From positions 1,556,622 to 1,620,621 of the forward strand of contig JAHRHZ010000061.1 of the NCBI GenBank assembly GCA_024137785.1: a DNA stretch of 64,000 nt. Direction: 5' to 3'. This stretch comes from Ginglymostoma cirratum (Eukaryota). A program made the translations under genes and the position numbers. Below the pieces are notes generated by a model that saw nothing but the letters and a program-made list of their open reading frames with translations, was not told the DNA's origin and searched no databases. Of this stretch, positions 12,101 through 54,100 are shown piece after piece (positions within the stretch are counted from its first letter, which is position 1; every line of letters starts with the position of its first letter).

Positions 12101-15100
12101 ACCTGCATCTGCTGCTTGCTCTGGCACTTCATTCCAAATATGAACCACCCTCAGTGTGAAAAGGTTGCTCCTCAGGTCCCTTTTAAATCTTTCTCCTCTC
12201 ACTTGTGGGTCTCACTTTTTACACACAATATCTTCATTGCTCATTTTGCCGTTGCCAACCTCTGCCTTACACTGCTTTTTAACACATAAGGCAGGGCAAG
12301 CAGCTAGTTATGGAATGGAGCACTGAACGTCAAGGAGATGGGCATGTTGATGTACAGCAGCATGTGCCAGCAGCTTAAGTGGAAAGCACTGTCAGTGCTT
12401 CAAGCTGTAAACCATGTGTGAAAGTCAAAGGGCACGAATCCTTATGGTGTAAAGGGGGCCTTTAGTAAGTCAGGGAGTTGGTGCCACAATCAGTAAAGGG
12501 GATTGTCTGATTCCAGTCCAGGGCTTTGGCCATGGTCAGTCACTTGGGGTCAGGAGTTTAGATTGGAGTTAATCAGAAGGTAGTTCACGGAGTCCTGGGG
12601 AAAGTGGGGTACTCAAGATTGAGATGGGTTTCATCGCATTGGATCAGCGAGGGAGTGAATACAGTGATTGGGGTAATTCTATATCAAAGATTGGGACCTC
12701 ATAGGTCATGGTCACTTGTAAGATATCTCACAGGTCCTGATTGCTCTGGCCTTACATCGGGAGGACCATCAAACAAGTGAATTTACAATGCCATGGGCTG
12801 TAGGGGTAAAGTGAGCATGTCAGTGGTAACATGAAGGAGCTCAACTGAAATCGGGAGGCTGTAAGGTCATAGAGGCTACAGGGACAGCACCACACAAGGA
12901 AATAAGAAGGATGGGAGTGTGGGGAATGACAGTCTTTCATCTTGGGCGGAACCTGCAACTCACTGACAAGAACACTTAAGGTGGAACCTTGCAATGTTAG
13001 ATCAAAAGTCAACTGCACAATAATTGCTCAAAATGACAGACACCTTATGCAAGTGGGCAGGGTAAATTTCTAGTTTTGTTTTAACTGACTGAGTAAAATC
13101 CTTGCGAATTGCAGTCCCCACGAGCAGCAACTCATCTAGCTTCAATTTAGACTTAATTGGCAGGGCATACATTGTCGAGATTGCACGGCCCATGTCATAG
13201 CTTCAAGCATCACATCGCACGGACCAATTCCGTCCTTGTTATGTATACAAAGCAACTACAATCAAACAAAGCACTTCAAAATGGAACTTTCCATTTCATA
13301 AATACGTTCCATAGCAAGCACTGGAAAACAATATTTTGCAACTACCACATTCTCCTGCTGAAATCTAAGTATGCAAGAACATGGTCTGCAGTGTAGAAGG
13401 GAACGTTTACTTTAGAGGGGAAATAATCATGGCTTACCGGCAGAATTCTATTCCAAATGTAGCATTAAAGTTTTGGCTGTGCAAAGTACAATTGGACAAT
13501 GTCATGTTCCACAGAGCTCCTTACATTGGCATGACAAGGCCTCCTTGTGAAGCCTCCTTACTGCGTAACATGAGGCTTAACTGTGATAGGTATAAGGGTT
13601 GAGGAATCTTTTCAATAAACTGATGGTTCTGTTCTAGCATTCCCCACAGATTATCTGTTTGTGGATCTCCCATCAAGGATTCCTGATAAGGAAGGCTATC
13701 TGAAGCGAAGGAGCCAGTAGTTTGCGAGAGATGAGTAATGCTAGGCCATGACAAATTCTTTCATCCTTGGGATATTGATACAGAGAAAATAGGTGCAGGG
13801 TCAGCGTTTCAATCCTTTTAGTGTTCCCTATTTTTCATTATAATTATTACTGATCATGCCATTCAACAGCCTTTACATGCTTTTCTCCACATCCTCATAT
13901 ACCTTTAGCCCCAAATGCTACACTGAACTTCTTGAAATCACACAATGTTTTGGCCTTGATGCTTTCTGTGGTAGCAAATTCCACAGGCTCACCACTCTCT
14001 AGGTGAGGAAATTTCTCCTCATCGCAGGCTTAAATGGTTTAGCGTGAATTCTTAGACTTGGACTCCAGGTTCTTGGTCTCCACTGCTATTGGGAACTTCC
14101 TTCCTACATCTCCCCCATCTAGTCCCGCTACAATTTTATCAGTTTCTGTGAGATCCCCCTTCATTCTTCTGAATTCCAGCAAATATATTCCTGATTCAAC
14201 CTCTCCTCGTATGTCAGTCCTGCCATGCCAGGAATCAATTTGGGAAACCTTCACTGCATTCCCTCAATAGCAAGAACATCCTTCCTCAGATAAGGAGGCC
14301 GAAACTGCACACAATATTCCAGGTGTGGTCTCACCGAGGCCCTGTAAATTTCAACAAGACATCCCTGCTCGTGTAGGATCATAGAATCTCTACAGTGTGG
14401 AAACAGGCCCTTCGGCCCAACAAGTCCACACTGAACCTCAGAGCATCCCACCCAGACCCATCCCCTATAACCCACCTAATCTACACCTCCCTGAACACTA
14501 CGGGCAATTTAGCATGGTCAATCCACATAACCCGCACATCTTTCGACTGTGGGAAGAAACTGGAGCACCCGGAGGAAACCCACGCAGACACGGGGAGAAT
14601 GTGCAAACTCCACACAGACAGTCGCCTGAGGCTGGAATCAAACCCAGGTCCCTGGCACTGTGAGGCAGCAGTGCTAACCACTGTGCCACCCACTTGAATC
14701 CTCTCGCTATGAAGGCCAGCAGACTATTTGCCTTCTTTACTGCCTGCTGCATGTGCATGCTTATCTACAGCAACTGGTGTACATGGACTCTTGCAAATTC
14801 CCCCTCCCAATTTATAGCCATATCTTAAAAGTTTGTTCATGTCTCTCAAGATTTGATTTAACCAGGTTCAAAAGTGAAAAAGGAACAACAGTCATGATCC
14901 TGCAATTAGTCATGAACTGGTAAAGCTAGCATCCAGCACTAAAAATGACTTCAGAAACTACTTCATGATATATAATGGTGGTGGTAGAGAAAAGCAACTA
15001 AACTTTGCTATGGTTAGAAAAGAATACACAATGCAAGCAAAGAACTGTCAAGTCTTCCCTAGTGAGGCAGTGAACACCTAACAAGAGGGGCTAATGCAGA

Positions 15101-18100
15101 GCTTGACTGTAAAGGAGAAAGCAGCACATAGTAGGAAGGCATCCATCAGGAGGGAGCTTAAAGATTTGCAAGTGAAGGAGGAAATCAGAGAGTCAGTGGA
15201 CAGCCAGTTAAGATGAATACAACTATGACAGACACTGTGGAAGACTGGCAGAACTCAGCGGCAGACTTGATTCAGAAAACAGGTGATGTAATATCTACAA
15301 GATAATCAGGGAGGACAAAAGCTCAGAGAGAAACTTGGTGATAGAATGAAAATATAGAAATTACAGTTAGGGAAAGGAAGACGCTGTTGAAGAGGTGAAA
15401 ACAGTCAGACCTCAAAGAAGATAAAGAACATCATTAGAAGGGAACAGCAATGTAGAGAAAGTGATTGCTGGAGAAGGATTTCTGGCCAGTGAATGTCTAG
15501 ATACCAGGTATCAACGACCAATATGATATTCTTGCTACCAAAGGGAACAGAAAGAATAAAAAGCTTCAGAAAACTAGCTACTGGAAGTAGGTTAACACAG
15601 GATGAGAGAAATAGATGTACAAAGACGATTACAGGCTGAGCAACCTCAATGTAAGAAGATAAAATTTTTCCATACTGTAGGGATTCCATGATTCTAAAAT
15701 CAAAGAGAGGTACGGTCTATATGTAATTGACTGATGAATAAATTACACAATGACCAAAGTGTGAAGAGGAAGCTACAAATGGCGGAATAACAGCTAGTAT
15801 AGTAAAAGAAATCAAAACAGGTTTGAAAAATGGCAAAATAGTGTCTAGAACCATAGAAACATTACTGTACGGAATTCCCTTGCTTTGTTTACCCTGTCCA
15901 AATGCTTAATCTAGATTGAATTCCATTTACCACTTCTCCACCCATTCATCGAAACCACTGACATCATCCCGCAGTCAACATGCGTCCTTTTCACAATCGA
16001 CTATCTGGCCGATATATGTGCAATGTACTAATTTCCCAATCGTGCCTTCAACATGCAAGTCTAAAGCCTAAATATAGACCACATCAGCAAGTGACCAACA
16101 CTGAGCCATGTGAAACATCAGTGAAAACCACTTTCCATTACAAAAACATCGCTTTGTTCTGTCACTGAACCAACTTTGAATCTAATGTACCGCATTCCCT
16201 TGTATCCATGGGTTTTAATTTTTGGACCAATCTATCATTTGGGACCTTGTGAAATGATTTACTTAACCCATGTAGCTATCATCTTCTGCACTACCCTCAA
16301 TAATCCTCCCTGTTACTTTCTGAAATAAATGCAAAAGCAAGGCGTGATCTTTCCTTAACAAAACCATGCTACGTATACGAGATAACAAGGTGTGGAGCTG
16401 GATGAACACAGCAGGCCAAGCAGCATCATAGGAGCAGGAAANNNNNNNNNNNNNNNNNNNNNNNNNNNNNNNNNNNNNNNNNNNNNNNNNNNNNNNNNNN
16501 NNNNNNNNNNNNNNNNNNNNNNNNNNNNNNNNNNNNNNNNNNNNNNNNNNNNNNNNNNNNNNNNNNNNNNNNNNNNNNNNNNNNNNNNNNNNNNNNNNNN
16601 NNNNNNNNNNNNNNNNNNNNNNNNNNNNNNNNNNNNNNNNNNNNNNNNNNNNNNNNNNNNNNNNNNNNNNNNNNNNNNNNNNNNNNNNNNNNNNNNNNNN
16701 NNNNNNNNNNNNNNNNNNNNNNNNNNNNNNNNNNNNNNNNNNNNNNNNNNNNNNNNNNNNNNNNNNNNNNNNNNNNNNNNNNNNNNNNNNNNNNNNNNNN
16801 NNNNNNNNNNNNNNNNNNNNNNNNNNNNNNNNNNNNNNNNNTCAACTTTCCTGCTCCTCTGATGCTGCTCGGCCTGCTGTGTTCATCCGGCTCCACAACG
16901 TTTTATCTCAGATTCTCCAGCATCAGCAGTTCCTACTATCTCTGTAACAGGCCAACTGGGACTAGCTTAGTTTAGGAAACTTGGTCGGTATGGATAAGTT
17001 GCTCCAAAAGGTCTGTTGCTGTATGACTCTATGACTCCGAGTCCTGCGTTGCCTCATAGTTTTCCTATCATCTTATGTACCTGAAGTTAGATTCCTTACC
17101 CCTTCCATACTGTCTGTTCTATTACTTGTTCTGGAAACTTTAATAACCTCTGCTGAACACCACCTCCCCCACCAACGTTTAACTATTTTGAAGTCCTGTG
17201 GCCACCCTATTTAGCCTTACCACAAGGACCTATTAGCTGCAGAGCAGGCAATCCCAAAACTGTTGCTGGAAAAGCTCAGCAGGTCTAGCAGCATCTGTGA
17301 AGGAAAAAACAGAGTTAATGTTTCGGGTCCAGTTACCCTTCCTCAGAAGTCACCGGACTCGAAACATTAACTCTGTTTTTTCCTTCACAGATGCTGCCAG
17401 ACCCGCTGAGCTTTTCCAGCGACTTTGTTTTTGTTCCTGATTTATAGCATCCGCAGTTCTTTCGGTTTTTAATCCCAAAACTGTATTTGGATGTATAAAA
17501 AATTCTGATAGCCAGCCTGCCTGCAATGTTGTGGCTGCTGGGCAAGATGCAGCTGATCAAATGCCTAAATCATGCACTGTTTATAAAGCACATGCCACGT
17601 CTGCATTAAATAGCATATAGTGAAGCTGCAAGACTATGTTCTATTGTACTGCAGCATTGCTATAAATGTTCATATGGTGGTGCTGTGTTTGTTTCCTCGC
17701 AGTAGCAATACAAAATGAACTGATTCAAATCAAATCAGCATAAGGACCTGTTTAAGAGGAACCAAATTTAAATGGGCCTTTCACTGTTAAACAAACTTTC
17801 TCTTTCTCTTCTTCCACATTCGACAAGTGAAAGAACCATGTTCTATTAGCGTGGTCGTAACTACCTAGTTCCCAAACTTGACCATCAAAAATTTATAAAA
17901 GGGTCTCCTTACCATTGAGTCGTCATCATTCTTTAAGTCTGCCGGCTCCATTGTTTGCTCTTTTGTCTCTTGTGTGGCAGTAAGTGCAGGCAGGCCAGTT
18001 GCTAAAAGATATAACAATTTGTCAGCCTGACTTTCACGTCATAATGTATAATGGTTAGGTTTCTTTCAGTTTCGGGAATGTTAGCACACTGGTTAAACAA

Positions 18101-21100
18101 ACACGTTGGTGATTCTGTTTGCAATAACGAAATTGAATTGAACAGACTCCACAATCAGTTATTATCAAATCACAAACCACATTCTAACAAATTATGTTCC
18201 CACAAAACTAACCCTAAAACAAGACTGCACCTTAAAGAGATTTTCCTTCTGAAAGTGGCTAGACTGAGAAAGAATAAAGCAGAATGGGCCACCCCATGAA
18301 GTTATGCTGACAAAACATTCAGGTTGGATAAACACAGAAACAAAGGATAGTAGCACATTCAGCCCTTCCAGCTTTCTCCACCAATCATCAAGATTATGAC
18401 TTGTGGTCATATACTTCAAAGACTATCCCTACATTTCCCCCATATCCTTTGATCCCTTTAGCCCCAAGTGCTATATCCAACTTCTTCTTGAAATCAGAAA
18501 CTGTTTTGGCCTTGGTTGCTTTCCATGGTAGCAAATTCCATAGACTGACCATTCTCTGGGTAAAGAAATTTCTCTTCATCTCAGTCTTAAATGGTTTATT
18601 TCAAATCCTTAAACTGACAGCCCTGGTTCTGGGACTCCCCGGCTATTGGGAACATCATTCTTACATCTACCCTGTATAGTCCTGTTTCAATTTTATAGGT
18701 TTCTATGAGATTCCCCTTCATTCTTCTGAACTCCAGCGAATATACTCCTAACCGATTCAACCTCACCTCCTACGTCAGTCCTGCCATCCCAGGGATCAAC
18801 TTGGTAAAACTTTGCTGCACTCCTGTAGCAAGAACATCCTTCCTTGGGTAAGGAGACCAAAACTGCACACAATATTCCAGGTGTGGTCTCACAAGGCCCT
18901 GTATCATTTCAGCAAGACATTTCTCCTCCTATACTTGAATCCTCTTGCTATGGAAGGCCAACACACCATTGGCCTTCTTTACTGCCTGCTGTACCTGCAC
19001 AGTTACCTTCAGCGACTGGTGAACAAGAACACCAGGTCTCACTGCACATTCCCTCTGTCTCAACTTATGGCCATTGAGATAATAATCTGCCTTCCTGTTT
19101 TTGCTATCAAAGTGGATAATCTCTCATTTATCTACATAATACTTCATCTGCCATGCAATTGCCCACTGACTCACCTTGTCCAAATCACACTGAAGCATTT
19201 CTGCATCCTCCTCACAGATTGCCCTCCCACTCAGGTTCCTGTCATTTGTAAATTTGAACATACTACTTTTCGTTCCCTAATCTAAATCATTAACGGACTC
19301 CAGCATTCTCTCTACTACTGACGTCAGGCTTACTGGTCTATAGTTCTGGTTTTCTCTCTGCATCCCTTTTTAAATAGAGGAGTTACATTAGCTACTCTCC
19401 AATCAGTTGGAATTGCTCCAGAGCCTACAGAATGTTGAAAGGTGACCATCAGTACATCCACTATTTCTAGGCACAATTCCTGGGATCTAATGCTATGTCT
19501 AATTTCCTTCGTAAGCTATGGTTTTGCCACCTTTCCCTTTTTAGTTTTATGCCAGACAGTAATTAAGAATTCTTGAAGTTCACCCATGCGCTCTTTGAAA
19601 GTTGCTATTGCATTTCCACTGTCATCCTTTAAATAATGTTCCTCAATCTATTTTAGCCAACTCACACCTCATACCATCATAGTTTCTTTAATTTAGAATC
19701 AGGACTTTAATCTCAGAATCAACTATGTCATTCACCATCTTGATTCTGTAATATCATGGGCCTTGCGCAACTACATTGTCGATTATTCCTTTCTCATTTC
19801 ACAATACCGAGTCTAGGATGGTCTGTTCTGTGTTGGTTCCTCAATGTATTGGTCCAGTAAACTATTACATATACACTCCAGGAATTCCCTCTCTACAGTA
19901 TTGTCACTAAATTGACTTGCCCAATCTTAATGCAGATTAAAGTCACACATAATTACAGATGTTCCTTTATTGCATGTATCTCTAATTTCCTGAATAACGC
20001 CAAACATTACCCTACAGTTTGGGAGTCTATATACAATCTCCACTAATACCTTTTACCCATTGGTGTTTCTCAGCTCTACCTGTACAGATTCCATATCATC
20101 AGAGTGAATATCCTTCTCTACTACTGCGTTAATGTCATCCTTAACCAGCAATGTAACTATACTGCCTTTTCCTTTTTGTCTGTCATTCCTAAATACTAGA
20201 TATTCAGTTCCCATCTCTGGTCACTCAGCAGCCTTGCTATCATAATGCAGAGTATATCATAGCTGTTTTCATCTATTTGCATGATCAATTCATCCACTTT
20301 ATTGCAAATGCTCTATGCATTAAGGCACAAACTTTACGGTGACCCTTTTTAACATTTATTGTTCCATTCCCATCATTTTTCACTGTGGCACTGTTTGATC
20401 CTGGCCCTTGATTTCTCCGCCCATCACTTTTCTTATTCCCTTTCTGTCTTTTGTTCTTGTCCTTTATTCCCCTTGCTCTGACTCCTTGTATAGGTTCCCA
20501 TCTCCCTGCAGTTTTAGTTTAAAAATCTTCCCAACCACACAAGCAAATACTCCCTCGAGGAGATCAATCCTGATCCTGCTCAGGTGTAACCCATCCAGTT
20601 TGTATCATCTCACCTCCCACAGAACCGGTCCGAATGTCCTAAGAATCTGAAATCCTCCTCTTTGTGCCATCTTTTCAGCAATATACTCATCTGATTTATC
20701 TTGCTATTTCTACGCTGACTAGCACACAGTGCTGGTAGTAATCTTGAGATCACTACCTTTGAGTTCCTACCTTTTAACTTACTTCCTAACTCCTTAAGTT
20801 CTGCTTTTAGGACCACATCCTTTTTTTCTTTTACCCTATGTTATTGGTACCAATGTGTACCATGTTCTGCAGCTACTCTGAGACATCCTTGACCCTAGTA
20901 CCAGGAAGGCAACATACCATCCAGGAGTCTTGTTTGTACCCACAGAAATGCCTGTCTATCTCCCTTACTGCATTATCCCACAGTTTTTACTCTTCCTCTG
21001 TGAGGCAGAGCCAGCACCAGCACAAAGAATTGGCTGTTGTTGCTTTACTGAGAGGCCATTCCCCTCAACAGTATCCAAAACGGATATCTGTTGCACATAT

Positions 21101-24100
21101 TGTGCATGTTGTTCATCAAGTACCATGATACCAGACCTGCCGATTTTCTCCAGCATTTTATGTGTTTGTTTCAGATTTCCAGCATTCCTAGTATTTTGCT
21201 TTTATAGGCACATAGGTGCCCCAGAGGATTTTGACAAAGTGGAGAGCAGTTTCTCCTTGAAGGACAGCCTCAGACACAGGGACACAGTTAATTTTAGAAT
21301 ATTCTGAAGGTGGAGGGTGATACATTGTTAACTAGAAAAAGGACATAAAGGTTGTCAGAAGTAGGTGGAATTGAGACCACAATCAAATCAGCTATAACCT
21401 TTCTGGAAGACAATGCAGGTTTAAGTCTTCTTTTCCTCATTTGTATGTACAATGTGGGACTTCCTGCCAGTTCCTGCAGGTCAAGAACTGACTTGTTCAG
21501 TCACATGAAGTTCCACAGAGGAACTCATGACCCTGACTAGCTATCATCCTTAAACTGAGAGACAGTATGCGATGATGATACTTAATGTGTCACGATTTGT
21601 CACCAGTGCATAATTTTTGGCAGAAATAATAAAACTGAATGAGCACATTAATATAATGTTGTGCTAAGAGTCATCAGCACAGCCAACTACTTACCGTTTG
21701 TTGACATTTCTCCTTTTGTCTGTGTTGGCGTTCCTATCAAATATTGAAACAAAAAGATTAGAGCTTTTTCATAGTTATGGGTTGCCCGAAAGTGCCTTCA
21801 AGTTACATTTTAGTACTTTTGAATTTATTGATAATAGCAAGTCGGCCTTTTAGCATGTAGAGTAGTCTGGCCAATTCTAAACATTGCTCAATTTCATTCA
21901 ATCACAATCATTCAGTCAGTACGACACTGCGGTAGAGTGAGACAAAGACTGAGTGAATTTCTGACTATACTGTTGAAAATTTAGTTCAAAAAGTGGAAAC
22001 TCAATGCAAAAGTGGGACGGCAGTGCTTTATTTGAGGTTTACTGCAAGAAACCAGATTGAGAAGTCAATGGGAGACGATAAAAGACATGAATTGAAAGGC
22101 CAACTCACAGTAAGACCAGTGGGAGTGTGTGGTCACAAACCACACTGTGACATGAATGGAGGGAAATAAACTGACTAAGTATTAGATTCATACTGGGATT
22201 TTTAATATCTTTTTAGTTTATAAATAAGAAATATTATTACAATAAAGTATAAAGAGCAGGGAATCTTGAGTAATTTGTTTATAAGTTAAAGTAAATACAA
22301 TAGAAACAGCAGGGTGGGTAATATGTAGCTGCTGCAACATGCGGAAGCTGATGGACACCAAAGTGATCCAGAGCAATCAGATCTGGAAAAAGGTTGGCAG
22401 TTCACAGAACATTGCATGTGAGTCAAGAAACTGGAGTCTCAGCTGCAGGCACTGTGTCAGGGAAGGGAAAAGTCACCAAGACAATTTGCTTCAGAGGACG
22501 GTCATATGCTTCAGGTTAGGTAATTCAAAATTGGTCTAATGATCATGGACAGGTGGCTGTGATTGCACGCAAGGCAGGTATGAAGACCATGAGTGTTAAA
22601 ATTCAGGAGCCTTGGTCCTGGCAATTCTCCAATAGTTACAAGTTTCTTGCAAACTGATAATCTAGACAGCAGGACGGATGAACAAACTATCTTGGCACCT
22701 TGGTGCAGGGTGCCATTCAAATGAGAGGAGGAAATAGGAATTTAGCTGTGCTAGGGGACAGTATACTAAAGGGATAGACACTGTTCTCTGCAGCCATCAA
22801 CAAGAGGTTTGAAGTCTGTTTTGCCTGCCTGATGCCGAGATTAAAGGACATTGTTTCAGACTAACAAAGAAATTGGGAAGAGGGAAGGCAAGTTCCAGGA
22901 GCCCTCATCCACGCTGGAACCAACAACATTGTTAAGACTGGAAAGGACACTTTGCTGAAAGATTTTAAACAGTTAGGAGCTAAATCAAAAGCAAGAACCT
23001 CCCAGGTAATAATTTCTGGATTACTATCTGAGCCATGGGTAAACTGGCATAAGGTGAATAAAGTAATGGAGTTATACTGAGGTTGTACACTATGTTGGTT
23101 GAGGCCTCTTCTGGTCACCCAGTTATAGGGAGGATATTATTAAGCTGGAGAGGGTTCAGAATGGATTTACCAGGATGTCGCCAGGACTGGAGGGTTTGAG
23201 TTATAAGGAGAGGCTGGGACTTTTTTCACTGGAGTGCAGGAGGTTGAGGAGGTGACCTTATAGAGGTTTATAAAATCATGAGGGGTATAGATAAGGTGAA
23301 TGGCAGGTGTCTTTTCCCTAGGGTGGGGGATTTCAAGACTAGACGGCATTTTTTTAAGGTGAGAGGAGAAAGATTTAAAAAGGACATGATCGATTTTGTT
23401 TTAAACATATAGTGGTTTGCATGTGGAATGAACTTCCAGAGGAAGTGGTGGATACGGGTACAGTCACAATGTTTAAAAGATATTTAGATAAGTTCTTGAG
23501 TACGAAATATTTAATAACTAAATAAGCATTTGCAAATGAAGACTAAAAAATGATAAAGTGATGTCAAAAAGCAGGGAAATAAGATTAGATAAAGTTGAAA
23601 AGGGTTTGAATGGGATGAATGGTCTTCTCCATTGTAATCTATGGTCAATGGAACCATTTGGTAATAGGTGACCAACATATATTTACTGAATACTTCAAAA
23701 GACGACTTCTACACAATTATAGAAACTATTATTTTCCTTTCCATTTGTACTGTACCTTGTTGAAAAAATGACAACAGCAACTGCATGACATCGGCTACAG
23801 GTTTGCCCAGATAACCAGCCAGTTGATGGTGATCCTCCCAGAGTTTTTCAACAGGACAATTTTTAAGCTCCTTTAATGATTTACGATCTGCTCCTAGGCT
23901 CACAAGGACTTCAGTGATTCTGTCCCACTCAATGGCAAATTCAGGTTCCTCAATTCCGGTGTTCAGAGTTTCAAACAGAAGCTTGTTTCGAAAGTTCCAA
24001 AGACGCAATACAGATGCACTTTTGCTCTGATCATTTGCCAATGGTTCAGCGTCCCATCCACCGCGTGGTGCAGGAAGGATCTTTAGGTGTCTAATAAGTG

Positions 24101-42100: not shown

Positions 42101-45100
42101 GTGGCAGATGAGTCGCAATGCAGAGGACTGGGAAGTGATACATTGTCATGGGAAGAACAGTGAAAGACAACACAAAGTAGGGGTACAATCCTAAAGAAGT
42201 TGCAGGAGCAGAGAGACTAGAGTGTATTTGCACACAGATCTTTGAATATGGTGGGAGAGGTAAACAGAGCTTTAAGTAAAGAATAAAGGATCCTTGGCTT
42301 TATTAACAGGGCCATAGAATACAAGAGCAAAGATGGGGTGTTGAACTTGTGTAAAACACTTGTTACACCTTAACTGGAGTATTGAGTACAATTAAGTAAA
42401 TAAAATGGAGAGTTTGTAGAGGCAGTCTAGAAGAACGGTTTCAGGGATGAGAAACGTCAGTTATGGAGGGTAAATTGAAGAAGTTGGGACTGTTGAGATG
42501 GTCATTGGAGAGAAGAAGGCTGAGGTAGGTCTTGATAAAAGTTTTCAAAATTATGAGTGGCTGGATAGTGTAGATATGATGGAAGCTGTTACTACTCGTA
42601 AACAAAAGAATATGGATGTAAAGTGATCTGCAAAAGAAGCAAGGGTGAAGTGAGGAAAAACATTTTCACTCAGTGAATAGTTAGGGTATGGAATGCATTG
42701 CCTGACAGTGTGGAGAGGCAAGTTCAATGCAGACATTCCAGAGGACACTGTATGATCATTTGGTTAAAATTACATGCAAAGGTATAGGGGAGAAAGCAGA
42801 TTTCTAGGCAATCATTTAACAAGTTAGCGCAGGCACAATGCACCAATTGGCCTTCTCCTGTGCCATAATACTTCTGTGATTCTGAGACACCAGAAACTGT
42901 AGACAACAGCAACAATGTTTAATTTAGTGGTGGCTTGCTTTATATTGTATTTCCTGCTCTCTTCCTGTTAAAACAGATAAAATAAATACATTGAAAAGTA
43001 TTTCTTACCTGATTAGATTTCCCATGATACTGAGTCTCCTTTAACCTTTTCCAGCAAGTAAGATGATATGATATCAAGCAATAAGAGTCACAACAAAATG
43101 CTATATAGCCCTGAAATGAGGCAAAGTGGTATGCATATATGTGTCAAATTTCATAGATATAAAAATAAATATTTCTTCCTGTATTTTTGGAAGAAATCAA
43201 GAAAAACAAAAAGGAAAATGTTGAATTTTCAGAAACATTTTGTTAAACTTGCTGAACTGTTGAAGTTTAATGAGATTAATATTGAAGGACAACAGTAAAC
43301 AGGAGAAAGGATAAGGATTTTGTCAAAATTTAATAGACATTGGATGCTTCTTGTTGACAGCTATCCAAACTGAGGCCCAATAATAAGACGGTTTTCCTTC
43401 AGCTTTTCTGCATCCTTTATTGTACGTGGCTTTTATTGCAAGAGCCTAATACCAAAAGCTATAATAGTAGAAGTATGCCATTCAACCCACTGAGTCTGCT
43501 CCACCATTCGCTGAGATTATGGTTGATTTGATAGTCTTCAATTCCACTTTCCTGCCTTTTCTCCAGAACCCTGGATTTCTCTACTGATTAAAAATCTGTC
43601 TATCTCAGCCTTGAACATACCTAGCGAACCAGCCCTCACAACCCTCCAAAATGTACAACCTCACATTTCCTATATGATGTTCCACCTGCCAAAATTTTGT
43701 CCGCTTGCTTAATCTATCTACCCCGCTGCAGACAGTTATGGCATCCCCAGTACTTGCCCAGCCCACCGATTTCTGTGTCATCTGGTAATATTACATTTGC
43801 TTCCCACATCCATATTATTAACATATACTGGCCCCAACACTGATCCCGGATATTCTACTTGTCAGGTCGCCATTAAATTAGAACTTTTTAAAAATTAGAA
43901 TCCCTACAATGTGGAAACAGGCCCTTCGGCCCAACAAGTCCACATCAACCCTCAGAGCATCCCACCCATCCCCATCCCCCTATAACCCACCTAATCTACA
44001 CATTCCTGAACACCACAGGCAATTTAGCATGGCCAATCCACCTAACCTGCACATCTTTGGATTGTGGGAGGAAACCGGAGCACCCGGAGGAAACCTACAC
44101 TGACATGGGGAGAACGTGCAAACTCCACACAGACAGTCACCTGAGGGTGTAACTGAACCCGGGTCCCTGGCGCTGTGAGGCTGCAGTGCTAACCACTGAG
44201 CTACCATGCCATCCTAAAAATATTCTCTTTATCCTAACTCTGTGCCTTCCATGAGTTAGCCAATCTGCTGTACAGATATACTACTATCAATACATAGGCT
44301 CTTGTCTTATTAATTAGCCTAATGTGCAGTACCTTATCTTTTAGAAATTCAAATATATTACATCTACTGGTTCCCATTTACCTCCCCTTGCTTATTACCT
44401 CCTCAAAAAATTCTAATAAATTTGTCAGGCATGACTCCCTTCATGAAGCCATGTTGACTCAACTTGATTATATCATATGTTTAGAATCATAGAAAATAGA
44501 AACAGCAGTAGACCATTTGGCCCTGTGACACAGCTCACTGATCCTTGTGGTACTCCACTAGTTACAGGTTGCTATCTTGAAAATGCTACCTTGATCCCAA
44601 CTCTGTGCCTTCTATTAATTAGCTAATATTGAAGCTAATATACTACTGCCAACACAATTGCTCTGATTTTATTTCAGTAGCCATCTGCTTTTACCAACTG
44701 CTTTGCTATTACATCCATTATAATAGACTTTAATCTTTTTCCAAGGATATGTTAAGCTAACTGACCTACATTGTTACCTATGGTTTTATCATTTTGCCTT
44801 TTTGACTAAGCATGCTCTCTTATCTATTTCCTCCAGAACTTTTCCACATTATAAGGATTCTTGGAAAATTACTACCAGTGCTTCCACTATCTCTGGAGCT
44901 GCTTCCTTTAATATCTTAGGATGTAATTCAACAGGTCTAGGGGACCTATCAGCCTTTAACCCCATAAGTTTCCTGGAAGATTTTTTTTTTATTCATTTAT
45001 GGAATGCAGGTGTTGCTCTCTCATATAACACTCTGCTGCATTTCTTCCAATTATACCAACTGAGCAAGTCTGTTACTTAATTTCCAAATCTACATTTTTA

Positions 45101-48100
45101 TCTTTTGCCACCAAACCCAGGTCTTAGAACTGGACATTTTCTCAAGTCTTCATCCATAAACTTTATGTCTTCAATGTGATCTTCTTCCTTTGGCTGAAAC
45201 TGATAATTCATAAATTGGATCTTGGGGCCGTTGATCTTCACATCCTTGTCTTCGAGTATGCTTCTCCAGTTTTCCAGATACTCAGTCGTGTTCTCATCAT
45301 CACCGTCACATAGCTTGGTCTTCCTGATATTTCTTAGCAACTTGTCTCAAAACAAAAAAATGTTTTGTTTCTTCTGGGCTTTAATCCAAATTGGCATTCA
45401 TTAGTTCCCACTGTTTTTCTCAGCCACTGGTCCATGATTCTCACCCAAACTTTAAAGTTATGTGGTAGGAGCTCAATTTCTCAGTTGTTTTTGCAACCTT
45501 GAGTGTCTCTCTTCCCTTTGGAAAACTGTATAAAATTGTTTTGCCTCCATGTCCTTGAGGTTTTCTCTTTATTATAAACACAATTCAATAGCTTATTCAG
45601 GACCTGGACCCCTTACTTATTTGTAAGTGCCATACTCCCACTAGTACCTCATCTGGTCCTACTAAAACCAATGCGCTGAGGACATAGATAGACATATGAT
45701 TGCATAATATAACTATAATGTTATAATGGAAACTTGGTTAAAGAAAGGCAAGGATTGCAGCTCAACACCCCTGTGTATAGAATTTCCGGGCTGAAAGAAG
45801 GTGATAAAAACAAAGGCGTACATTTTTAAAAAAATAATCAATTGTAGCATTAAGTAGGAATGATATACTAAATGAAGCATCAAATGAGACGAAAAGGCCA
45901 CATGAGAAACAAAGAAAAGGGAAGCTGTACTGCTCACATGTATGTATAGCCCCCCCACATGGTGGGAGAGAATTAGTGGGACAAATATGTAGCAAATTCC
46001 TGAGTTCAAAAATAATAGCATAATAATATTTGGGGACCTGAACTACCCAAATACCAACTGGTATATGAACAGTTTAAAAGGTACAGAGGGCACAAAATTC
46101 TTGATTGCATTCAAGAGAATTTTTTTTTGCCTGCATGCAACAAGAGAGAGGGTGTAATTCTGGATTTCGTCTTCAGAAATGAAGCTGGGCAGATGGATGT
46201 AGTAGTCGGTGATTGTTTTGGAGGTAGTGCTCTCAATACGATTAGATTTTGCATCATTAGGGAAGCGGACAGAGATAGAACAGCAGTAAAAGTCTACATT
46301 GGGAGAAAGCAAACTTTTTCCAAGCGGAGCGATAATTTGGCAAAAGTGGACTGACTACAGCTACTTAAAGAAAAGGCATGGCAAATCATAAGAGGCATTC
46401 AAATTGAGATTCTACAGATACAGTATATGCATGTCTTCACAAAGAAAAAGGATGGTACTGCTAACTATAGAGTTCACTGATTATCCAGAAGTGTACAGGG
46501 TGAGATAAAGAAGAACACAGCTCATGACAGTCTCAAAAAAGTAATACTTCATGAAGAATATTGAAACATAGAAAGGACAGCGATGAAATTTGGAAATCAG
46601 AAAAAAATTGGCCAATAAAATTAAGGAAAATCCAAAGATGATTTAATACATTGAGTCAAAGATGATTAAGAGTAAAGTTGGGCCTATCGCAGAACTAGAT
46701 GGTAAATTATGCATGGATGCATTGTCACTATATTCACAATGGAAGGGGGTGATGCAGACATTCTAGTTAAAGAGGAATGTGAAATATTACATAAAATAAG
46801 CAAAATGAAAAAGGGGATGGATTGGAGGGACTGATCTCCTTGAAGACGGATAATCACCAAGGCTGCAGGAATTGTTAAAAGAATCCAGGGACAAAATAGT
46901 GGATGCTCGGAGAATCATTTTCCAAATCTCACTAGAAACAGATGCGGTACCAGAGTTCTGCAAACATATCTTATTCGGAAAGGGTGCTAGAAATGGACCA
47001 AATAATTATTGGCCAGTCAATCTGACCTCAGGAGGTGGGAAAATTACGACAGTCAATACTGTCACAGAGTCATACAGGATGGAACCAGACCCTTTGGTCC
47101 AAATTGTCCATGCTGACCAAGTTTCCCAAACTAAACTAGACCCACTTGCCTGTGTTTGGCCCAAATCCCTATAAACTTTTTGTATTCACACACCTATCCG
47201 AATGTCTTTTAAGTGTAACTGTACCTGCATTCACCACTTCATCCACAGACGAATCACCCTCTGAAAAATTTGCCCCTCAGGTCCCTTCTTTCTCCTCCTA
47301 CCTAAAAAATACGGTCGCTAGTATTGAACTCCCCACCCAAAGGAAAAAAACTTTTGCTATTCACCTTATCTATGTCCCTCATGAATTTATAAACCTCTAT
47401 AAGGTCACCCCTCAACCTCCTATGCTCCAGTGAAAAAAGTCCCAACCTATCCAGCTTCTCCTTATAACTCAAACCCTCCATTTCCAGCAACATCCTTGCA
47501 AATTTTTTCTGAATCTAAATCTCCAATTTAATAATGCTTCCTAAAGCAGGGTGACCAGAATTTTGCACAGTACTCCAAAAGTGGCCTCACCAACATCCTG
47601 TATAACCTTAACATGACATCTCAACTCCTTAATTCAATGGTCTGAGCAATGAAGGCAAGTGTACTAAATGCCTTCTTAACCACCTTGTCCACCAGTGACG
47701 CAACTTTCAAGGAACTGAGTGACCTAGGGGTTCAGGTACACTGTTCAATAACACTATCCAGGGTCCTACCATTAACTGTACAAGTCCTGCCCTTGTTTGT
47801 TTTACTAAAATTCAACACCTCACATTTATCCAAATTAAACTCCATCTGTCACTCCTCAGTCCATTGGCCTAAGTGATTAAGATCTTTTTGTATTCTTAGG
47901 TATCCTTCTTCACTGTTGACTATACGATGGTTTGTAAACCATGCCTCCTAAATCCTCATACAAATCATGAGAGTTGCAATTAACTGTTACTTGGAAATGG
48001 TTCAAGACACTATTTTGCCATTTTCAAACCGGTTTTGATTTCTTTTACTATACTAGCTGCTATTCCACCATTTGTAGCTTCCTCTTCTCACTTAGGTCAT

Positions 48101-51100
48101 TGTTTAATTTATTCATCAGCCCATTAAATATAGACCCTACCTCTCTTTGATTTTATCTTCTTACATTGAGGTTGCTCAGCCTGTAATCTTCTTTGTACAT
48201 ATTTCTCTCATCCTGTGTTAACCTACTTCCAGTAGCTAGTTTTCTGAAGCTTTTTATTCTTTCTGTTCCCTTTGGTAGCAAGAATATCATATTGGTCGTT
48301 GAAACCTGGTATCTAGACATTCACTGGCCAGAAATCCTTCTCCAGCAATCACTTTCTCTACATTGTTGTTCCCTTCTAATGATGTTCTTTATCTTCTTTG
48401 AGGTCTGACTGTTTTCACCTCTTCAACAGTTTCTTCCTTTCCCTAACTGTAATTTCTATATTTTCATTCTATCACCAAGTTTCTCTCTGAGCTTTTGTCC
48501 TCCCTGATTATCTTGTAGATATTACATCACCTGTTTTCTGAATCAAGTCTGCCGCTGAGTTCTGCCAGTCTTCCACAGTGTCTGTCATAGTTGTATTCAT
48601 CTTAACTGGCTGTCCACTGACTCTCTGATTTCCTCCTACACTTGCAAATCTTTAAGCTCCCTCCTGATGGATGCCTTCCTACTATGTGCTGCTTTCTCCT
48701 TTACAGTCAAGCTCTGCATCAGCCCCTCTTGTTAGGTATTCACTGCCTCACTAGGGAAGACTCGACAGTCCTTTGATATGGTTTCGAAAAAATTACACAA
48801 TGGAAGCAAAGTTCAGCTATGTTTCCCCACCACTACCATTATAGGTCACGAAGCAGTTTCTGAAGTCATTTTATTCAGCAGGGCTTAGCATTATCAATTG
48901 GTACAACATGATAAATTGCAGGAACTGCTGTAGTTTCTTTTTCACTTTTAAAGCTGGTTAAATCAAATCCATGTGAAATGGATTTCAGATATGGCTATAA
49001 ATTGAGAAGGGGGGAATGAGCACGAGTCCGTGTACACCAGTTGCTGTAGATAAGCATGCACATGCAGCAGGCAGTAAAGAAGGCAAATAGTCTGCTGGCC
49101 ATCATAGCGAGAGGATTCAAGTACACGAGCAGGGATGTCTTGTTGACATTTACAGGGCTTCGGTGAGACCACACCTGGAATATTGTGCGCAGTTTCAGTC
49201 TCCTTATCTGAGGAAGGATGTTCTTGCTATGGAGGGAATGCAGTGAAGATTTCCCAAATTGATTCCTGGCATGGCAGGACTGACATACGAGGAGAGGTTG
49301 AATCAGTTAGGCATATATTCATTGGAATTCAGAAGAATGAAGGTGAATCTCACAGAAACCTATAACTTTGTAGCAGGACTTGAACAGGGTAAATGCAGGA
49401 AGGAAGTTGCTAATGGTTGAGGAGGCCTAGAACCGGGGCTACATTCTAAGGATTCATGGTAAATCTTTTAAGACTGAAATGAGGAGACATTTCATCACCC
49501 AGAGAATGGTGAGCCTGTGGAATTTGCTACCACAGGAAGCAGTCAACGACAAAACATTGCATTTACTTCTTACGTTTCTAAGAAGTTGGATATAACACAT
49601 TGAGGTAAAGGGAGCAAAGGATATGGAGAGAAAGCCGGAAAAGGCTTTTGAATTTGATGGTCAGCAATAATTACAGTGAAAAGCAGAGAAGGCTCAAAAG
49701 GACTGAATGGTTGACTTCTGCTCCTATTTTCTATGTTCCAATGATGAAAGAAATATGTCCCAATGATGAAAGAATTTGTAATGGCCAAGCACTGCTCATC
49801 TCTCACAAACTACTGGCTCCTTCGCTTCAGATAGCCTTCCTTATCAGGAATCCTTGATGGGAGATCCACAAACAGATAATCTGTGGGGAATGCTAGAACA
49901 GAACCATCAGTTTATTGAAAAGATTCCTCAACCCTTATACCTATCACAGTTAAGCCTCATGTTACGCAGTAAGGAGGCTTCACAAGGAGGCCTTGTCATG
50001 CCAATGTAAGGAGCTCTGTGGAACATGACATTGTCCAATTGTACTTTGCACAGCCAAAACTTTAATGCTACATTTGGAATAGAATTCTGCCGGTAAGCCA
50101 TGATTATCTCCCCTCTAAAGTAAACGTTCCCTTCTACACTGCAGACCATGTTCTTGCATACTTAGATTTCAGCGGGAGAATGTGGTAGTTGCAAAATATT
50201 GTTTTCCAGTGCTTGCTACGGAAAGTATTTGTGAAATGGAAAGTTCCACTTTGAAGTGCTTTGTTTGATTGTAGTTGCTTTGTATACATAACAAGGACGG
50301 AATTGGTCCGTGCGATGTGATGCTTGAAGCTATGACATGGGCCGTGCAATCTCGACAATGTATGCCCTGCCAATTAAGTCTAAATTGAAGCTAGATGAGT
50401 TGCTGCTCGTGGGGACTGCAATTCGCAAGGATTTTACTCAGTCAGTTAAAACAAAACTAGTAATTTACCCTGCCCACTTGCATAAGGTGTCTGTCATTTT
50501 GAGCAATTATTGTGCAGTTGACTTTTGATCTAACATTGCAAGGTTCCATCTTAAGTGTTCTTGTCAGTGAGTTGCAGGTTCCGCCCAAGATGAAAGACTG
50601 TCATTCCCCACACTCCCATCCTTCTTATTTCCTTGTGTGGTGCTGTCCCTGTAGCCTCTATGACCTTACAGCCTCCCGATTTCAGTTGAGCTCCTTCATG
50701 TTACCACTGACATGCTCACTTTACCCCTACAGCCCATGGCATTGTAAATTCACCTGCCTTTGATGGTCCTCCCAACGTAAGGGCCAGAGCAATCAGGACC
50801 TGTGAGATATCTTACAAGTGACCACGATCTATGAGGTCCCAATCTTTGATATAGAATTACCCCAATCACTGTATTCACTCTCTCGCTGATCCAATGCAAT
50901 GAAACCCACCTCAATCTCGAGTTCCCCACTTTCCCCGGGACTCCATGAACTGGCCTCTGATTAACCCCAATCTAAACTCCTGACCCCAAGTGACTGACCA
51001 TGGCCAAAGCCCTGGACTGGAATCAGACAATCCCCTTTACTGATTGTGGCACCAACTCCCTGACTTACTAAAGGCCCCCTTTACACCATAAGGATTCGTG

Positions 51101-54100
51101 CCCTTTGACTTTCACACATGGTCTACAGCTTGAAGCACTGACAGTGCTTTCCACTTAAGCTGCTGGCACATGCTGCTGTACATCAACATGTCCATCCCCT
51201 TGCTCCCTACTGAAACTAGCTGCTTCCTCTGCCTTGTGTTAAAAACCAATGTAAAGCAGAGAGGTTCACAGCCTCTGACTGAGCAACATGTCACTGGCTT
51301 ACTTGTTCAAGTAGGCAATGTTGTCACTAACCTGTGCAGGTAACTGAAAACAATGCACAATTTCCATCGTGTAGTAGAATCCTTACTGTGGTTTCTTGTG
51401 CTCCATTACACAAGACCACTAAGTGTATCAGTAGAAAGTAATTTTATTTTCAGTGTAAAATTTCTTTGAAAACCTAGAGTATATATGTGAAAGTGACTTC
51501 TCAGTCAGTTTTCATTTTGAAGTAGTTGTCCATTGTGCCAATATCTTGCTCAAAAAGACAAATCTGAACACTATTTCTGGATGATCACTTATTGTTTGAA
51601 TCATTGGCACTTAGCAGCAGCAGTTTATGCATCTGGTTGAAAACAAGTCACTTCACAGTTTTTGCAGGTTATTGCTATGAGCTGTAAAAGCTTGTCTTTT
51701 GTGGGGAAAAGCCCACACTTTTGCACTCTGCTGTTCTTGGGTTTACAAAACCAGAGTCTATTTATGACTTAATTTGTCTTTCCACTTGCTCTTTTCAGCC
51801 TTTATAATACCCTGCTTTACAGGCCTTTACCCTTCATTTATTAGTTTCAAAATTGTGCACAGTATACTCTTACAATCAGAGAACCATACAGCATGGAAAC
51901 AGACCCTTTGTTCCAACTTGCCTGTGCTGACCAGACATTCCAATCTGAGCTAATCCCATTTGCCGGCATTTGGCCCAAATCCCTCTAAACCCTTCCTATT
52001 CATGTACCCATCCAGATGCCTTTCCAAATGTTGAAATTGTACCCACCTCCACTACTTCCTCTGGCAGCTCATTCCGTACACACACCACCCTCTGCATGAA
52101 AAAGTTACCCCTCAGGTCCTTTTTAAATGTTTCTCCTCTCACCTTAAACCTATGGCTTCTAATTTGGATTTCCTCACCCCAGGGAAAAAGACCTTGGCTG
52201 TACACTGTATCCATGCCCCTCATGATTTTATAAACCTCTGTAAGGTCATCCCTCAGCCTCTGATGCTCCAGAGGAAGAAAGCCCCAGCCTATTCAGCTTC
52301 TCCCTATAACTGAAGCCCTCCAGTCCTAGCAACATCCTTGTAAATCTTTTCTGTACCCTTTCAAGTTTAACAACATCCTTTCTATAAAAGATGACCAGAA
52401 TTGTATTCAGTATTCTAAAGGTGGCCTCATCGATGTCCTGTTTCAGCACAATGTGAGATTCCAACTCCTGTACTCAATGTTCTGACTAATGAAGTCAAGC
52501 ATGCCAACTACCTTCTTTACCACCTGTCTGCTTGCAACTTCAGTTTCAAGGAACCAGGCACCTGCACCTTAGGTCTCTTTGTTCAGCAACACTCCCCAGG
52601 GTCCATTCATTATCTGTATAAGTCCTGCCCTGATTTGCCTTATCAAAATGCAACACCTCACCTTTATCTAAATTAAACTCCATCTGCCAGTCCAATGCCC
52701 ATTGGCCCATCTGATCAACGTCCTGTTGTACTATGAGGTAACCTTCTTCGCTGGCCAACACACCACCTATTTTGGTGTCATCTGCAAACATACCAACCAT
52801 GCCTCCCATATTCACATCCAAATCATTTATATAAATGACAAAGAGAAGTTGACTTAACACACCGCTGATCACAGGCCTCCAGTCCGAAAAGCAACTGTAT
52901 ACACCTCCCTCTGCCTCTTACCTTCAAACCATATTTGTATCCAATTGGCTAGTTCCCCTTGGATCCCAAGCAATCTAACCTTAGTAACCAGTCTACTATG
53001 CGGAACCTTGTCGAATGTATTGCTGAAGTCCAATAAAAAGTATTTGGTTCTATGAATAGTTAAGGAAAAGATTTAAGTGGCTTCACACCACAATGTGTAT
53101 TTTAACAGGAGTATCACTTCTTCATTTGGAAAATTTGAATTAAAATCAATTTCCATGTTTAGAATATCAGTTAGAAATGTAGGTCCTTTTTCAGTGTAAA
53201 CCAGAATAGCAATTGAGAGTAGATGCTGTTTAAAAACTGGGTTTCTTATGCTGAAATATAATTAGAAATATGATTACATTATAACTTCAACGAGGTTAGT
53301 GGGTCATCTGGCAACACATTTTCCAAAAAGTTAAACTCAAATGATAACTTGTGTCAGAGAACCATTTTAGAATAAATTATTACATGCAAGTATTCCGCAT
53401 ATGAGAAATACTCCAACCTTTAATACAACTGGCAAAGCAATTTGGATTTTCTTATAAAGACATACCTTGTAATCTGGGTCAGATGGATAGATTTCCCTTT
53501 TGTAATATCCATGACAATTTGCATCTTGGCAGATGGCTACAGGATTAGGAGCATGTTTACACATTTCAATATATTCATTTATTTTGATCTACAGGATGAA
53601 AAAAAAGTTTCACGTTATTTTGAGCAAACAAAAATAAAATGAGAGTTACTGGTTCTAAATAATTAAATATCTCAGACAGATTTGGATTAGGATATTAACT
53701 CCAGTCAAGTGGTCTGGTTCCAAAGCAAAAAAAGTACTAACTGAGGCACTTTCAGATGAAGCCAATCTGCTTCCTTTAACATTTTGTAATAATTTGTTTA
53801 TAGCGTCACAAGGCTTGAAGATATGAATTTTAAAACTTCCAACTGGTTGGAATTGTTGCAAATTGGACTGAGACAAGACAAACTGCTTGAATGTGCAAGG
53901 CTACCTTCTAGATGAAAAAAAACAAATAAATCATACACAGGGAAGTGTAAAAGGAAAGATTTCCAGACACCCCCTGAAACTATCACTGGCCTCAATTAGG
54001 CATTAATAAATGTAAAATACGGGGCATTGATACAATGACTGGCACAGACCAACCAACCCAAATAACTTCTTGGAAATACACACACTGGAACTGGGATTTC

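Follow-up and report, generated by a model that had tools for sequence, protein, structure and literature searches.

The stretch analysed here, hereafter the window, comprises 64,000 nucleotides of the Ginglymostoma cirratum genome (GenBank assembly GCA_024137785.1, contig JAHRHZ010000061.1, positions 1,556,622 to 1,620,621 of the forward strand) and holds a DZIP3-like E3 ligase gene on the minus strand, intact and in ancestral exon order, with a kilobase-scale inverted repeat whose two arms bracket nine of its exons. The account that we favour, as likely though by no means secure, is that the arms are inverted copies of one 3.3-kb transposon-derived intron patch, produced by one old duplication and then reworked by repeated patchy gene conversion, probably with no selected function. 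The gene itself was identified by homology: a search with its HEPN exon returned 14 proteins, of which 12, from sharks and rays, bear the name DZIP3-like. In our gene model, 18 exons fall within the window, each bounded by AG/GT, and encode 937 aa without a stop; 878 of the 937 residues (93.7%) are identical in the DZIP3-like protein of Stegostoma (zebra shark), identity to three whale-shark fragments is 93–98%, and in a protein tree the window protein groups with the zebra- and whale-shark proteins (support 100/99), which marks the DNA as that of a carpet shark. In the Stegostoma orthologue, TTC3_DZIP3_dom, HEPN_DZIP3, the TTC3 helical domains and a C-terminal RING score above the Pfam cut-offs, and TPR also belongs to the architecture; the RING lies past the window edge.

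Arm A (12257–15854, plus strand, 3598 bp) lies in intron 12 (window numbering), between the exons ending at 17913 and starting at 9835, and arm B (47997–51266, minus strand, 3270 bp) lies in intron 3, between the exons ending at 53466 and starting at 43110. The arms are inverted relative to each other and separated by a spacer of 32,142 bp. Upstream of arm B in the direction of transcription, exon 3 (53466–53588, 123 nt) is the last before the repeat and encodes the first part of the TTC3/DZIP3 Cys-His domain. The enclosed block, on the minus strand like all exons of the gene, runs from exon 4 (43009–43110, 102 nt, phase 0) through exons 5 (40746–40838, 93 nt), 6 (40230–40273, 44 nt) and 7 (38153–38265, 113 nt), the predicted death-fold/CARD-like module 1 in exon 8 (33106–33381, 276 nt, phase 1/1), the predicted CARD fold of module 2 in exon 9 (31935–32243, 309 nt, phase 1/1), which is skipped in some annotated shark isoforms, the DZIP3-type HEPN in exon 10 (23756–24412, 657 nt, phase 1/1) and exon 11 (21695–21733, 39 nt) to exon 12 (17913–18001, 89 nt), which ends in phase 0; exon 13 (9779–9835, 57 nt) is the first after arm A. 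The preliminary description of this DNA had placed the arms in the two introns bracketing these nine exons, and the mapped gene model agrees, as it does with the count of 102 + 93 + 44 + 113 + 276 + 309 + 657 + 39 + 89 = 1722 nt (574 codons) with phase 0 at both ends.

The inverted repeat itself is equally well founded. Self-BLAST recovered it as two inverted pairs, 12260–14375/49122–51261 at 91.2% identity and 14692–15854/47997–49122 at 88.2%, both of which far outscore everything else among the 55 repeat pairs within the window, and global alignment of arm A with the reverse complement of arm B gave 93.7% identity over 3202 columns, with 201 mismatches and 31 indel events. The difference in arm length is due chiefly to a 316-bp insertion at 14376–14691, present in arm A only. 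Among the 13 intron pairs of the gene with a match, the arms form the best inverted intron-intron match, at 4578 bits versus 694 for the runner-up.

The average identity, however, stands for a mosaic, which the preliminary description did not mention, just as it passed over a 400-N assembly gap near arm A. Three tracts form a high class (98.8–99.6%; 1734 columns at 99.1%, with 16 mismatches and no indel), three a middle class (92–97%; 689 columns at 94.8%) and three a diverged class (79–84%; 779 columns at 80.9%, with 25 indel events). Differences between the arms are clustered by each of three statistics (dispersion of 9.6, a longest perfect run of 302 bp and the sum of squared runs), none of which was reached in any of 10,000 permutations. 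On the plus strand of arm A, the homogenised tracts are 12343–12566 (99.6% to B 51190–50967), 12777–13724 (948 columns, 99.2% to B 50753–49806, containing the 302-bp perfect run and without a further copy in the window) and 15051–15612 (98.8% to B 48762–48201). Between them lie unconverted tracts at 13725–14191 (79% to B 49805–49306), which contains the 3′ junction of a long interspersed nuclear element (LINE) fragment common to the arms, and at 14784–15050 (84%, 13 indel events), which contains the 5′ junction of that fragment and a micro-inversion of about 40 bp between the arms (A 15003–15042 versus B 48771–48812) with short inverted ends.

From the outer end of arm A, the order of components is 1.47 kb of unique sequence (12257–13724), whose sole other match in the window is arm B, then the LINE 3′ fragment, then about 1 kb with a decayed remnant of LINE open reading frame 2 (ORF2), and this inner part of the arms is likewise present in only two copies within the window. 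Overall, about 75% of each arm is without any further match in the window. The LINE fragment (13776–14829, minus strand; arm B counterpart 48985–49752, sense on the plus strand) is 5′-truncated, and we take it to be CR1 from motif resemblance; a related LINE copy at 52549–52917 carries an RVT_1 Pfam match, and a third, independent copy of the same subfamily (18331–19700, right end approximate, minus strand) provides an outgroup to the arms. The ORF2 remnant (~15195–15425), presumably RTE-like, covers the linker between endonuclease and reverse transcriptase (RT) and lies within the 15051–15612 tract shared with arm B; its read-through matched five proteins at E ≤ 0.001, two of which carry RVT_1, and the match in one of those proteins falls between the endonuclease and RT domains. 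The 316-bp insertion, to which no strand was assigned, is a dispersed repeat of the size of a short interspersed nuclear element (SINE), presumably a SINE by its resemblance to such elements, and is 88% identical to a copy at 43896–44205.

Several simpler descriptions of the arms were rejected. No Pfam match was found in the six read-through frames of arm B, and thus no gene inside the arms, while an Rfam search of the window gave no match, although a non-coding RNA of a new kind could still reside in them; with only LINE remnants to show, the arms are not read as coding or as structured RNA. An arm is not a single transposon, as its ends show no long terminal repeat (LTR), terminal inverted repeat or target-site duplication, and a young transposable element inserted twice is likewise at odds with the missing terminal repeats and target-site duplications and with divergence that is non-uniform along the arms. 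We also considered whether arm A had been pasted into a pre-existing LINE, but its flanks fall about 500 bp apart on a reference copy and the inner flank resembles a different, older subfamily. Past the arm ends, the only matches are generic LINE and SINE ones.

Several lines of evidence point to a single origin of the arms. Both LINE junctions, together with the adjoining non-LINE sequence, are common to the arms and lie within diverged tracts where they are only 83–86% identical; a single LINE insertion therefore preceded the duplication, which is itself old. Within the diverged LINE tract, 15 sites unite the two arms against the third copy, compared with 8 and 8 for the other groupings, when one outgroup (D) is used, and 11 compared with 3 and 4 when another is used; private changes number 34 and 37 for the arms and 53 for the third copy. 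A young duplication whose LINE tract was later overwritten from elsewhere was rejected, given that the non-LINE flanks are equally diverged. At 0.98, the transition/transversion ratio of the diverged LINE tract is a little low against the 1.10–2.18 of six other pairs. As judged from the sequence, the arms are thus likely to descend from one duplication. Kimura two-parameter (K2P) distances are 0.222, 0.054 and 0.009 for the diverged, middle and high classes, corresponding to about 103–128, 25–31 and 4–5 million years (My) when the bamboo- and whale-shark values of PMC9826928 are converted into yearly rates. This would make the duplication of LINE debris roughly 100 My old, with weak calibration.

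In the process that we propose, a break in one arm would be repaired from its partner 32 kb away, resetting tracts of 0.2–1 kb to near identity, and tracts interrupted by indels would escape conversion. Repair without crossover would be harmless, whereas a crossover would flip exons 4–12 and be purged, which may be why the ancestral orientation is the one seen. The 316-bp insertion sits in a 97% tract with near-perfect flanks, even though it is only 88% identical to its sibling copy, and homogenisation therefore appears to have reached both sides without copying or removing it. Homogenisation of inverted repeats has precedents in yeast (PMC9731477) and in primate X palindromes (PMC8327919). 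Because both arms lie in one transcript, they can also pair in RNA; if intron 3 is slow to splice, the arms would pair in the pre-mRNA, and we would expect adenosine-to-inosine (A-to-I) editing, and a minor 1722-nt circle or a skip from exon 3 to exon 13, to arise as by-products and not to serve the gene as its switch. The inverted repeat is probably neutral.

A number of points weigh against this account. The quartet excess with outgroup D is modest, and K2P varies from 0.14 to 0.26 among individual tracts, which blurs the dating. The date also depends on the rate: the hammerhead value of PMC9826928 would place the duplication at about 690 My, which is not credible, so that only "old" is safe to say of it. 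We infer conversion from a single assembled sequence, and polishing or gap-filling could have inflated the identity of the arms, one of which lies 587 bp from an assembly gap. Neutrality is presumed, and tracts kept at 99% for so long could instead reflect selection for RNA pairing; PMC8327919 argues that selection keeps long-lived palindromes.

Selection of that kind leads to the alternative that survives best, although we consider it unlikely: the arms would be an RNA-pairing element, in which conversion preserves a kilobase-scale duplex that promotes either a 1722-nt circular RNA (circRNA) encoding a stop-free block of two CARD folds and HEPN or the looping-out of exons 4–12. In its fullest form, for which the odds seem to us just as slim, a palindrome of about 100 My, made entirely of defunct transposon sequence and with both its arms in a single coding gene, would have been kept complementary by conversion since the duplex is selected, releasing the stop-free circle with its tandem CARD folds and HEPN or stripping these immune-type modules from the E3 ligase. 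Pairing of the pre-mRNA and inversion by non-allelic homologous recombination, both raised in the preliminary description, are physically plausible, as the arms are two real, distinct sequences and the gene's best inverted intron match, and on sequence grounds a duplex, editing and a minor circRNA are plausible too. For a 450-nt piece, the predicted duplex has a folding energy of −862 kcal/mol, and the gene model confirms that frame 0 stays free of stops both across the skip junction and around the back-splice circle. At Sry and other loci, inverted repeats on either side drive back-splicing (PMC4201285), and such repeats can also promote skipping (PMC8330042).

Of the functional switch that the preliminary description built on these properties, by contrast, we found no sign. 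Same-phase ends occur in 44 of the 136 intron pairs, 28 of them 0/0, so that the matching frame is a one-in-three coincidence and weak evidence. The TTC3/DZIP3 Cys-His domain has 114 residues, of which skipping exons 4–12 would remove 64 and leave 50, splitting the domain rather than excising a clean module. Between the arms and the back-splice sites there are 4887 and 2059 nt, and splicing of intron 3 would need to be delayed while a further 27–31 kb is transcribed. None of 27 cartilaginous-fish proteins and annotated isoforms joins exons 1–3 to exon 13, although the repeat may be absent from some or all of those species; this set, from which 13 distant HEPN-only matches were left out, consists of annotation models and cluster representatives from searches that each scored about 8000 candidates, and could therefore lack a rare isoform. 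What the annotations do contain is skipping within the block: exon 10 (HEPN) is absent from 10 isoforms in five species (Chiloscyllium plagiosum, Cetorhinus, Carcharodon, Mobula and Hemitrygon), some of which also lack exon 9 or 11, one bamboo-shark isoform lacks exon 9 (CARD2) alone, and the Callorhinchus protein has no match to exons 10–12. In other sharks and rays, the annotated switching of domains takes the form of ordinary cassette skipping, of exons 9–11.

It is improbable, to a slightly greater degree, that both arms exist but owe part of their near-identity to the assembly, reads of one arm having been used to polish or gap-fill the other. The 400-N gap (16442–16841, strand not applicable) lies 587 bp from arm A on the spacer side, between two inverted short-repeat halves, and the whale-shark reference splits the gene into three models, with one break in the arm-A intron; the locus is therefore hard to assemble. 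In these models, the exons up to 7 are joined to the C terminus, exons 8–12 are on a 25-kb contig and one model starts at exon 13, with breaks in intron 7, in the arm-A intron and beyond the window that may be misassembly or real rearrangement. Exon order across the gap in our window is colinear with other sharks, however, which fixes the orientation. The 99% tracts keep 16 scattered differences over 1734 columns, with perfect runs that end at 302 bp, and tracts of intermediate identity (92–97%) are present as well. Copies only 80% alike would not cross-map, and an artefact can therefore sharpen the mosaic but hardly create it. A further possibility allowed for in the preliminary description, that one arm might be an artefact altogether, is contradicted by the arm-specific insertion, the micro-inversion and the diverged tracts, which mark two real sequences.

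There is little to recommend the idea that the arms are a composite dispersed repeat with many recombining genomic copies, two of which landed here in inverted orientation by chance. The arms are built of LINE remnants, and other repeats seen at least twice cover 32% of the window, but arm ends without LTR, terminal inverted repeat or target-site duplication, the non-uniform divergence and the large share of each arm that has no other match in the window all argue otherwise, and two copies 32 kb apart point to a local event. The preliminary description had allowed for a high-copy unit whose position is incidental; with just two window copies of the outer 1.47 kb and of the inner 1 kb, a young unit of this kind can be set aside.

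Perfect runs of 200–300 bp, as found in the arms, are adequate recombination substrates. That the arms drive a flip-flop genomic inversion, segregating or somatic, that switches between full-length and short forms of the gene is nonetheless very improbable, even though yeast has a 24-kb region that inverts repeatedly between homogenised repeats of 4 kb (PMC9731477) and intragenic inversion can cause exon skipping (PMC8421701), for here the spacer is part of the gene and its inversion removes 574 codons, exons 4–12 are retained in all full-length homologues, the opposite strand, whose longest open frames reach 177 aa at most (that one within a LINE copy), gives no hint of an alternative cassette, and exons 3–7 are colinear in the whale shark. 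The same colinearity led us to reject the whale-shark split as an A/B inversion, which would need a break in intron 3.

The preliminary description had also assigned CARD-like modules and a HEPN domain to the enclosed block. HEPN is confirmed: exon 10 corresponds to HEPN_DZIP3, with a Pfam match in the orthologue. The CARD assignment stands by predicted fold, clearly for exon 9 and more weakly for exon 8, but not by sequence, as neither exon matched any Pfam family at E ≤ 0.1. The predicted fold of exon 9 aligns with the NOD1 CARD at Z 9.8 (root-mean-square deviation (rmsd) 3.0, 84 aligned residues), and 14 of the 15 top structure matches are CARD-bearing or likely so, the remaining one being a designed protein. 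For exon 8, the predicted fold aligns with the caspase-1 CARD at Z 7.8 (rmsd 2.6, 79 aligned), and the match list holds mostly CARD and death folds, yet the scores are within the range of common helical matches. Foldseek returned no match at E ≤ 0.001 for either model, and the Atlas match to a CARD cluster, at 0.82, is below the reliable range of the Atlas. According to these models, both exons would encode six-helix CARD-type death folds, clearly so for exon 9 and with less certainty for exon 8. A tandem duplication of the two was rejected, as BLASTP gave no alignment between them.

Each CARD-like module and the HEPN occupies its own phase-1/1 exon, and the HEPN-less and CARD2-less isoforms suggest a conserved switch by which cassette exons with immune-type modules are included in, or dropped from, a RING E3 ligase. 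At what we take to be the position of the Rx4-6H catalytic motif, R and N are present in the HEPN region but histidine is missing, and the domain may be an inactive nuclease. Over exons 8–12, the window protein has seven private residues. Exon 8 contains four of these, one at a nearly invariant proline, and another private change affects an invariant valine in the HEPN exon, possibly reflecting relaxed constraint or sequence error. Fusion of DZIP3-type HEPN to CARD has already been listed for animal lineages (PMC3710099).

Three further features were noted in the window. The arm-A intron contains a minisatellite at 10938–11285, with 41-bp units in 8.6 copies, and intron 7, where the whale-shark model breaks, contains a 62-bp inverted pair (35334–35395/36209–36270) at 98% identity. 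A short open frame at 28074–28358 on the minus strand has no Pfam match and is presumably a fragment resembling a Harbinger-type transposase.

If conversion has indeed shaped the arms, the locus offers a small natural experiment on how long inverted repeats of non-coding DNA can sustain themselves where crossover is forbidden, since here it would invert nine coding exons. Within 3.3 kb, converted tracts adjoin escaped ones, and several related shark genomes could date them. For sharks, the arms also show exactly where circRNA and A-to-I editing might be sought; should no RNA product exist, they are a curiosity of neutral evolution and a site where assemblies are likely to run into trouble. In the literature covered, from which subscription journals were mostly absent and supplements were not included, we found nothing on a shark DZIP3 repeat or circRNA, and no study of circRNA or A-to-I editing in sharks turned up.

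Among known systems, the FLNA-EMD repeats and primate X palindromes resemble the shark repeat in having long inverted arms, a spacer of tens of kilobases and identity kept by conversion, possibly for about 100 My (PMC8327919; Caceres 2007 as cited there). Their arms, however, are 8–140 kb long, more than 99.8% identical and mostly gene-bearing, and enclose whole genes (PMC8327919), whereas each shark arm is a 3.3-kb stretch of transposon debris within an intron, homogenised only in patches, and the spacer consists of nine coding exons of the gene that holds both arms. The flip/flop of Saccharomyces chromosome XIV resembles the shark repeat in arm length (4 kb), a 24-kb spacer, recurrent homogenisation and mobile-element insertions in one arm; according to the same source, its arms carry essential sporulation genes and its inversion is harmless and polymorphic (PMC9731477). 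By contrast, the shark arms appear to encode nothing, and an inversion there would remove much of the host gene's coding sequence. In F8, the partner repeat copies lie outside the gene. There, too, an intronic copy of inverted duplications is the substrate for a gene-disrupting inversion (PMC8421701, PMC3961182), and inverting internal exons removes them from the mRNA; at RHOH, HsInv0102 inverts a single non-coding exon (PMC6748972). Human inversions within introns or over an internal exon are known (PMC6748972, PMC3961182, PMC8421701), but the shark arms are both intronic, bracket 574 codons and are known from one orientation.

On the RNA side, mouse Sry and other circRNA loci with reverse-complement matches share with the shark locus long inverted complementary sequence flanking exonic sequence in one transcript (PMC4201285, PMC8330042). 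Sry, however, has a single exon, repeats of more than 15 kb and a demonstrated circle (PMC4201285), whereas the shark locus has nine exons over 25 kb, arms 2–5 kb from the splice sites and a circle that is only predicted. As a protein, the gene product, going by its orthologue, parallels the DZIP3/TTC3-like RING E3 ligases with HEPN (PMC3710099) in its TPR, TTC3/DZIP3 Cys-His, HEPN_DZIP3, TTC3 helical and RING domains; the shark and ray version differs in that separate phase-1 cassette exons encode the HEPN and each of two predicted CARD-like modules. Inverted repeats homogenised by conversion are themselves known, and what would be new here is that the conversion-homogenised arms are short and gene-free and that both lie inside one coding gene.

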